DNA of 64,000 nt from Escherichia coli (GTDB taxonomy: Bacteria; Pseudomonadota; Gammaproteobacteria; Enterobacterales; Enterobacteriaceae). The translations under genes and the position numbers were made by a program. Below are positions 62,564-64,000 of this stretch, piece by piece; within the stretch, counting starts at the first letter, position 1; each line of letters starts with the position of its first letter. A model generated the notes under the pieces. It did no database searches. It was given only the letters and a program-made list of their open reading frames with translations, and had not been told where the DNA came from. The stretch lies in assembly GCF_024502345.1 (NCBI RefSeq), contig NZ_JALDNN010000001.1, one strand, 5' to 3'.

Positions 62564-63139
62564 GTGGTTATCTACGCTTTTAACAAACGATTGATGGAAT
62601 ATTTTATGAAAGGGAAATCTGCATTAACTCTTCTGCTCGCTGGTATATTTTCGTGCGGCACATGCCAGGCGACAGGGGCAGAAGTGACGAGTGAATCTGT
62701 ATTTAACATTCTTAATTCCACGGGGCAGCAACAGATAAAAGTTATTTATCGTTAAATCCAGATAAGTACCCTAATTATCGTCTTCTGATTCACTCAGCCA
62801 AATTAAAAAATGAAATAAAGAGCCACTATACCAAAGACGAAATTCAAGGGTTGTTAACATTAACAGAAAACACACGAAAGTTAACGTTGACGGAGAAACC
62901 CTGGGGAACATTTATTCTTGCTTCTACTTTCGAAGATGACAAAACAGCGGCAGAAACCCACTATGATGGTGTCTGGCTGAGGGATAGTTTATGGGGCTAT
63001 ATGGCATTAGTATCAGATCAGGGAAATAGTGTAGCCGCAAAAAAGGTTCTGCTCACCCTGTGGGATTATATGTCTACGCCCGACCAGATTAAGCGGATGC
63101 AGGACGTCATTAGCAACCCCAAACGACTGGATGGAGTTC
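62564..63139 (+). pseudogene. ygeQ-like low-GC gene remnant: signal-peptide ORF plus out-of-frame continuation, cut at its 3' end by IS3
   Basis: ORF 62564..62755 (signal-peptide-like MKGKSALTLLLAGIFSCGTCQA) and ORF 62851..63156 (contains HYDGVWLRDSLWGY) lie in different frames; the second reads straight into the IS3 terminal repeat; locally AT-rich. Confidence 0.5.
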
Positions 63140-64000
63140 TGATCCTACCCACGTAATATGGACACAGGCCTAAGCGAGGTTCTGGTTTTCAAATTGTTCC
63201 GGACTGAGGCCGCCACACCAACTGTGCCGCCGCCACCGATTGTAATCACATTCGATATAATTAAACACCGTTGCCCGCATTATTTCCCGGCTGATAAAGT
63301 GTTCTCCATGGATACATTCCACTTTCAGCGAATGAAAGAAGCTTTCCACGCAGGCATTATCGTAGCAGCAACCTTTTGCGCTCATACTTCCACGCAGATT
63401 ATGCCGCTTCAGTTGCGCCTGATAATCTGCTGAACAGTACTGGCCTCCACGGTCCGTGTGAACGATAACGTTCCGGGGCCTCTTACGCCGCCACAGCGCC
63501 ATCTGCAGGGCATCGCAGGCCAGTTGCGCCGTCATGCGTGGCGACATTGACCAGCCAATAACGGCACGTGACCACAGGTCAATGACCACTGCCAGATACA
63601 GCCAGCCTTCATCTGTACGTAAGTACGTGATGTCTCCTGCCCACTTCTGGTTCGGGCCACTGGCGTAAAAATCCTGCTCCAACAGATTTTCTGACACAGG
63701 CAGGCCGTGTGCGCGGTAGCTGACCGGGCTGAACTTCCGGGAGGCCTTTGCCCTCAGTCCCTGACGGCGCAGGCTTGCCGCCACGGTTTTTACGTTAAAG
63801 GGGTAACCCTGAGCACGCAGTTCATCCGTCAGGCGTGGGGCACCGTAACGCTGTTTTGACCGGGTAAAAGCCGCGAGGACAACGCTGTCGCAGTGTTGGC
63901 GGAACTGCTGACGCGTGCTTATCCTTGTCCGCCGCTGACACCACGTATACCAGCCGCTGCGGGCCACCCGGAGCACGCGGCACATTGCTTTGATGCTGAA
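63140..64000 (-). mobile_element. IS3 insertion sequence, partial (one end at 63140; element continues past the window end)
   Basis: Terminal sequence TGATCCTACCCACGTAATATGGACACAGGCC begins at 63140; the transposase OrfB stop lies about 30 nt inside the end. Confidence 0.85.
63170..64000 (-). CDS. insF: IS3 transposase OrfB (InsF, DDE integrase), N-terminus outside the window
   Basis: ORF 63170..63985 ...[37 protein letters not shown]...[10 protein letters not shown]...HTDRGGQY...; matches IS3 InsF; frame stays open to the window edge. Confidence 0.9.

Follow-up and report, generated by a model that had tools for sequence, protein, structure and literature searches.

Transposition of IS3-family elements follows a copy-out-paste-in route through a circular intermediate, and the donor copy stays put. 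In E. coli B, IS150-associated deletions of rbs reportedly arise when a newly inserted copy recombines with one already resident in the same orientation, an account credited to Cooper, Schneider, Blot and Lenski in 2001, and they are reported to leave an IS3-family element at the deletion junction without matching duplications. The ETT2 island is in turn said to have undergone mutational attrition, as Ren et al. reportedly described in 2004 (J Bacteriol 186:3547), a paper that both PMC3032704 and PMC3977695 cite. Here we describe an IS3 next to the ETT2 site in a 64-kb stretch of E. coli DNA, which in its full length is called the window below.

ETT2 adjoins glyU, extends over 29.9 kb and has a G+C content of 36.9% (PMC3977695). 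The island is widely degenerate, and laboratory strains (K-12, B, C and W) have kept only remnants of it (PMC3032704). The K-12 remnant is like the window in being a degenerate or deleted island beside glyU, with insertion sequences at breakpoints and ygeQ as a pseudogene; it is unlike the window in that it keeps yqeH to ygeO, carries IS2 in place of IS3, and has a ygeP fragment after a ygeQ that, at 795 nt, is longer. The initial annotation had placed an IS2 and not an IS3 in this neighbourhood in MG1655, and this was borne out: ygeO and ygeP have IS2H between them, and the interval is free of IS3. The B strains share the gene order xdhA, actS, glyU, ygeQ', IS3 with the window, and the junction of the ygeQ'-IS3-'yqeH structure in REL606 (NC_012967.1) and BL21(DE3) (NC_012971.2) is base-identical to that of the window over 301 bp. 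The window differs from BL21 at 16 of 845 aligned positions in the flank between glyU and ygeQ; its ygeQ remnant has lost 1 bp, and the flank also shows a 4-bp indel and 11 SNPs.

The features at this end of the window are collected in Table 1. In RefSeq, actS is found at the corresponding position of NCTC9064, BL21(DE3) and A29, and a promoter-like site lies by glyU at 62254-62281. That glyU marks the ETT2 island site, as the initial annotation held, is supported by the published location of the island, and the G+C content of about 37% over 62400-63000 and in the ygeQ remnant, low as expected for island DNA, against about 52% in xdhA and actS, agrees with the published 36.9% (PMC3977695). From glyU to the end of the window, no type III secretion apparatus genes (eiv, epa, epr, etc.) were found.

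Table 1. Features of the glyU-ygeQ-IS3 region, with positions numbered from the first base of the window.
Feature	Position	Strand	Basis or remark
actS (ygeR), amidase activator lipoprotein gene	61465..62220	+	ORF 61441-62220; core-genome neighbour upstream of glyU
glyU, tRNA-Gly(CCC)	62299-62372	+	ARAGORN; glyU also in the MG1655 annotation
ygeQ pseudogene, N-terminal remnant of a GH15 lipoprotein gene (~178 codons left of 536)	62606..63139	+	alignment against A29, MG1655 and BL21(DE3)
1-bp deletion (frameshift)	62722-62725	+	GGGG, against GGGGG in BL21, A29 and MG1655
ORF of the initial annotation	62851-63156	+	TTG start, 101 aa; in-frame end part of the GH15 remnant, downstream of the frameshift, and 17 bases of IS3
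IS3 (1,258 bp when complete), right-hand 861 bp up to the end of the window	63140..64000	-	right inverted repeat 63140 to ~63178
IS3 orfB (insF-type DDE transposase)	63170..64000	-	ORF 63170-63985; C-terminal 271+ codons in the window

The coding sequence of ygeQ starts at the ATG at 62606 and encodes a lipoprotein-like signal peptide. Its orthologue in A29 is intact (1,611 bp, 536 aa), and the annotation assigns its product to glycoside hydrolase family 15 (GH15). The intact A29 protein scores 25.4 bits for Pfam PF00723 over residues 94-401, above the curated cut-off of 22, and neither of the fragments in the window (49 aa and 101 aa) gives a match. The match to the GH15 gene ends at the equivalent of codon 178, and two-thirds of the gene is gone, most of the catalytic domain included. 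In addition, the 1-bp deletion at 62722-62725 causes the frame that begins at ATG 62606 to terminate at 62753-62755, while the GH15 frame goes on in a +1-shifted ORF. RefSeq describes ygeQ as 'incomplete; missing C-terminus' in BL21(DE3) and, in NCTC9064, as 'frameshifted' in addition; the NCTC9064 flank differs from that of the window at 3 of 841 positions, with no indel. We conclude that the ygeQ copy in the window is the remnant of a GH15 gene and not a functional member of that family.

The sequence TGATCCTACCCACGTAATATGGACACAGG, the right end of IS3, an identification that the RefSeq product name corroborates, occurs at 63140-63168 on the + strand. It is the sole exact match in the 64-kb window, where none is expected by chance. 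The letters across the junction are ...GACTGGATGGAGTTC|TGATCCTACCCACGTAATATGGACACAGG..., where the bar stands between 63139 and 63140, and alignment with the intact A29 GH15 gene and with MG1655 ygeQ showed that the ygeQ homology stops at exactly this point. The start of IS3 at 63140 in the initial annotation is thus confirmed by a right-end match that is exact and unique in the window, and its observation that the ORF at 62851-63156 runs into the element is also correct, the last 17 bases of that ORF being IS3 sequence. The ORF ends in ...KRLDGV-LILPT*, encoded by GTT C|TG ATC CTA CCC ACG TAA at the 3' end, so that a Leu codon straddles the junction and five and a bit codons lie inside IS3. 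The further claim that the native C-terminus of ygeQ had been swapped for codons of the element has to be abandoned, however, and the ORF is better read as an artefact of the upstream frameshift within the pseudogene: an ORF with a TTG start at 62851 enters a mechanical list of ORFs because the GH15 frame continues in a different phase after the frameshift. In a scan of 62150-63300 for promoters and terminators, the number of sites was not above chance, with the exception of the plausible glyU promoter, and nothing in the scan pointed to a functional unit in the ORF that runs into IS3. The ORF would accordingly be annotated as the tail of a pseudogene and as neither a gene nor a fusion protein.

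The element itself was recognized as IS3 from three properties, namely a terminal repeat that begins 5'-TG and carries the right-end sequence, an OrfB with a DDE (rve) domain, and near-identity of the element at this site to other E. coli IS3 copies. The Pfam domains of orfB are rve (4.8e-28), rve_2 and HTH_21. The transposase of IS3 is produced as an OrfAB fusion through a -1 programmed frameshift; the frameshift site, the 5' part of orfB and the whole of orfA lie beyond 64000, and BL21(DE3) has the annotation 'programmed frameshift' for its copy of the element at this locus, the full RefSeq product being 'IS3-like element IS3 family transposase, programmed frameshift'. Positions 63140-64000 of the window are identical to the BL21(DE3) copy at all 861 of 861 bases. 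In BL21(DE3) and in 7/2 the element at this site is 1,258 bp long with both inverted repeats, and in NCTC9064 it is 2,519 bp long with a second IS3-family element nested inside it, flanked by a TTG duplication. When a 2,408-bp query over the BL21(DE3) copy was searched, other IS3 copies on E. coli chromosomes and plasmids matched the whole element (query 601-1858) with 99.8-100% identity. An exact-end search for the left end of IS3 gave no match in the 64-kb window, which ends 397 bp short of it.

We therefore turn to the far side of the element as it is found in three genomes with the same junction that were opened at that end, BL21(DE3), NCTC9064 and 7/2. In all three, the left end of IS3 is followed by TAGATGCTACGG, which is the antisense strand of yqeH. 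The BL21(DE3) sequence beyond the left end reads TAGATGCTACGGATATCC..., and the alignment with MG1655 yqeH breaks exactly at the IS3 left end, at about nt 551 of 633. RefSeq lists the yqeH stump of BL21(DE3) as a 189-aa 'hypothetical protein' (WP_001389254.1) whose stop codon lies 17-19 bases inside the left end of IS3. This stop mirrors the situation on the ygeQ side. Both gene stumps run on for a few codons inside the ends of IS3 before they meet a chance stop codon, and the resulting 'fusion' ORFs are by-products with no sign of function. Past the stump, the order in BL21(DE3) is yqeG, yqeF and kduI, and genomes with the same junction have yqeH' and yqeG directly after IS3.

The equivalent interval in A29 contains the rest of the GH15 gene, a GhoT/OrtT toxin gene, type III secretion apparatus genes, and the regulators ygeH to yqeI. 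Relative to A29 the loss amounts to 22,090 bp, with the IS3 that A29 itself carries counted in, and relative to MG1655 to 10,207 bp, so that the B-type arrangement (that of the window's junction) removes 10.2 kb beyond the K-12 loss. The B-type IS3 has the left flank GTTC and the right flank TAGA, with no duplication. Two simple insertions in the island served as positive controls for target-site duplication: the IS3 of A29, inside the FHIPEP gene, lies between GTAC and GTAC, and that of MB7671, at the 5' end of yqeH, lies between TTAT and TTAT, each a 4-bp duplication. The presence of different genes on the two sides of the B-type IS3, together with the lack of a duplication, argues that the element is a deletion scar. 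We conclude that this IS3, as far as sequence comparison can establish it, represents the scar of a deletion of nearly the whole ETT2 island. Because the window ends inside IS3, we infer that the element of the window strain continues into yqeH as well, and that strain almost certainly lacks the ETT2 type III secretion genes.

A second arrangement was found in LR-45 (NZ_AP027532.1). Like the B type, LR-45 has a single IS3 in the same orientation between the ygeQ and yqeH sides, has no duplication (left flank GGTA, right flank ATTA) and has lost ETT2. Unlike the B type, it has an intact GH15 gene, with IS3 located 63 bp past the stop codon, and a yqeH stump of 327 nt. Each type keeps sequence that the other has lost, so neither derives from the other, and the LR-45 and B-type deletions are therefore independent. 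The LR-45 type was present in 1 of 5,426 complete E. coli genomes, compared with 189 for the B type.

This set of 5,426 genomes was the sample for all genome counts. With a 301-bp query centred on the ygeQ/IS3 junction and at least 80% of it covered, 189 genomes matched, and the best 40 of the 189 matches were all 100% identical. The 1,021 bp around the junction were likewise found in 189 genomes, at 98.8-99.8% identity. The yqeH/IS3 junction was present in 194 of the 5,426, and the whole 2.4-kb ygeQ'-IS3-'yqeH structure was present in one piece in 184. Carriers of the junction include REL606, BL21(DE3), BLR, C41/C43, B derivatives from NEB and a strain named C, as well as isolates from giant panda, horse, pig, chicken, dog and human. 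The initial annotation had suggested that the junction may be strain-specific, a view that it would have given up if the reference genome of the source strain showed the same junction as an ancestral, fixed feature. The comparison with reference genomes found the same IS3-ygeQ junction in REL606 and BL21(DE3), which answers the suggestion in spirit, and a junction common to 189 of 5,426 genomes, many wild isolates among them, is not specific to one strain. We conclude that a sizeable E. coli lineage, the B laboratory strains included, has probably inherited the junction as a fixed feature. It is also already known in the sense that it is annotated in RefSeq and has been in the public reference genomes of B strains for years. 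A search of the open-access literature found no paper discussing this IS3 scar and none naming ygeQ together with IS3, and the ETT2 papers dated 2014, 2020 and 2024 mention neither IS3 nor ygeQ nor BL21.

We next consider how the scar was formed. It probably arose when two IS3 copies recombined. One copy would have inserted into ygeQ and the other, in the same orientation, into yqeH, and homologous recombination between both copies would then have excised the ETT2 DNA in between. The product would be a single hybrid IS3 with one half of each original duplication on either side. For the window strain, the model predicts that position 64000 is followed by 397 IS3 bases ending in ...CCACTATTGCTGGGTAAGATCA and then by TAGATGCTACGGATATCCATATCC, in the antisense direction of yqeH. 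We favour this route because copy-out-paste-in transposition keeps the donor, because the IS150 deletions of rbs provide a precedent, and because multiple IS3 copies can be present in the island, as in MB7671, which has two, one in yqeH and one at ygeH. The precedent concerns another element and another locus and arose in the laboratory, whereas the ETT2 scar is an old natural event. IS3 copies are too similar to each other for a hybrid element to be recognized, and IS3 repeatedly targets the AT-rich ETT2 island.

Two artificial queries represented the intermediates of the recombination route. The left end of IS3 joined to TTC and the rest of ygeQ was found in 0 of 5,426 genomes, and the right end of IS3 joined to CTA and the rest of yqeH detected no simple insertion at the yqeH site in the same set. 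MB7671 was the only match to the yqeH query and was rejected, since its IS3 in yqeH is another insertion, located at the 5' end of the gene. With neither intermediate present in any genome, we therefore infer the two-copy step and do not observe it. The absence of both the two-copy and the single-insertion intermediates among the 5,426 genomes would also be expected if the IS3 transposase had made the same scar directly, with a single IS3 deleting the adjacent DNA by intramolecular transposition or adjacent deletion, in a single complex event or in two steps, one per side. Such a route needs neither a second IS3 copy nor RecA-dependent recombination, and it also predicts flanks without a duplication. 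The endpoints of the LR-45 deletion both differ from those of the B type, as expected if an internal IS3 nibbled outwards, and A29 does have an internal IS3 in the same orientation. However, two separate deletion events would be needed to change both flanks, and the element is undamaged, retaining its full length and both ends. General knowledge of the family points the same way, with copy-out-paste-in as its mode of movement and with IS150 deletions formed through a second insertion and recombination. We consider the direct route unlikely, although it deserves to be taken seriously, and we prefer recombination between two IS3 copies as the origin of the scar.

A different question is how the scar came to be so widespread. 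It could have arisen once and then passed from lineage to lineage as homologous recombination exchanged the glyU-yqeG region, and not by vertical descent alone, in which case it would mark a chromosomal segment and not a clade. In keeping with this, the IS3 of the window is identical to the BL21(DE3) copy and one base off the copies of NCTC9064 and 7/2, the glyU-proximal 130 bp differ between the window and BL21 by a 4-bp indel and 9 SNPs, and carriers of the junction are 98.8 to 99.8% identical to the window over 1 kb. Moreover, the last 25 kb of the window are at most 99.5% identical to any complete genome and the last 4 kb are 99.9% identical to NCTC9064, which suggests a mosaic. The same pattern would nevertheless result from an old vertical event followed by recombination that replaced only the flank, and we regard lateral spread as quite improbable. 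This proposal concerns the route by which the scar spread and is compatible with its explanation as a deletion scar.

Least credible of all, and close to dismissed, is the reading in which IS3 entered the 3' end of an otherwise intact ygeQ by a recent, strain-specific simple insertion, as the initial annotation had placed it, with the rest of ygeQ and ETT2 beyond the element and the IS3 left end followed by GTTC or TTC and the rest of ygeQ (CCGGGCAAATGAATGC...; CCGGGCAAATGAATGCTG): the ORF at 62851-63156 does read into the IS3 end, MG1655 has no IS3 at the locus and the window stops before the other IS3 end, but 189 complete genomes, from a variety of hosts, have the same junction, as do all laboratory strains of the B lineage, the far end abuts truncated yqeH without a duplication in the genomes inspected, the rest of ygeQ follows IS3 at this site in none of the 5,426 genomes searched, the break falls at codon 178 of 536 and not at the 3' end, and the remnant in the window is frameshifted as well.

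The locus agrees throughout with what is known of IS biology and of the history of ETT2. For annotation, our results mean that 62606-63139 would be described as a frameshifted, truncated GH15 pseudogene abutting IS3. The B-type scar could serve as a handy PCR or sequence marker for the lineage that includes the B laboratory strains. The locus is otherwise one more case of the IS-associated loss of a degenerate island, which is a well-accepted picture, and is of little import beyond annotation. A broader reading, which we put forward tentatively and stop somewhat short of endorsing, is that IS3 may have caused losses of ETT2 repeatedly and not just once. Its basis is the existence of at least two independent IS3-bounded deletions of the whole island, together with the simple insertions into the island in A29 and MB7671. 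If this is true, the targeting of the AT-rich island by IS3 might account for much of the 'mutational attrition' known for ETT2.

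The ygeQ remnant to the left of the scar carries damage of its own. Where BL21(DE3), A29 and MG1655 have a run of five G residues, the window has four (62722-62725), a 1-bp deletion that shifts the frame of the remnant. The ygeQ of NCTC9064 has zero indels relative to the window, and its annotation reads 'frameshifted'. We conclude that the G-run deletion at 62722-62725 is a second lesion, later than the one that killed ygeQ. Beyond the IS3, the truncated YqeH frame of BL21(DE3) reaches a stop after 19 bases of the IS3 left end, and its product, WP_001389254.1, goes under the label given in the table in many genomes. 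The YqeH stump/IS3 ORF is a mirror image of the ygeQ/IS3 ORF. An equivalent stump is expected just past window 64000.

Over its last 4 kb, the window shares 99.9% identity with NCTC9064, while the 25 kb at 39001-64000 exceeds 99.5% identity in no complete RefSeq E. coli genome; judged by these identities, this segment may be a recombination mosaic. Compared with BL21(DE3), a 4-bp indel and 9 SNPs are clustered in ~130 bp directly downstream of glyU (62370-62500), just 2 SNPs separate the two in the ygeQ remnant that follows, and their IS3 parts are identical. Such clustering at the tRNA-island border hints at either a hypervariable spacer or a boundary of recombination.

On the opposite side of glyU from the scar, IS1-associated deletions are present in NCTC9064 (L001 7357-8110), where IS1 truncates xdhA and fuses it to uacT, and in strain 7/2 (L005 4389-5212), where IS1 joins uacT straight to actS. 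Both have lost the xdh/ygeV-ygfK selenium/purine cluster, which is intact in the window.

Features of the scar and other IS3 copies in ETT2, by genome locus
Feature	Genome	Locus coordinates	Details
Truncated YqeH (LuxR-type regulator)	BL21(DE3)	L003 10390-10959	189 aa, annotated 'hypothetical protein'
Second IS3-family element, inside scar IS3	NCTC9064	L001 13327-14587	IS911-like end TGTAGTGGCACACTAAATTTGGCC; target-site duplication TTG
IS3 at independent ETT2 deletion	LR-45	L006 11281-12538	without target-site duplication
IS3 copies	MB7671	L007 4896-6153 and 11898 onward	inside ETT2 region
IS3 in FHIPEP gene	A29	L002 14124-15381	target-site duplication GTAC

The scar IS3 has itself been a target in NCTC9064, where the nested element breaks its orfA. 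LR-45 retains an intact GH15 gene, with the IS3 starting 63 bp past its stop codon and yqeH reduced to 327 nt, and an IS3-bounded ETT2 deletion of this type was found in only one of the 5,426 complete E. coli genomes searched. In MB7671, one IS3 lies in the 5′ end of yqeH (target-site duplication TTAT), and the other, in inverted orientation, truncates ygeH. ETT2 looks like an often-hit target of IS3.
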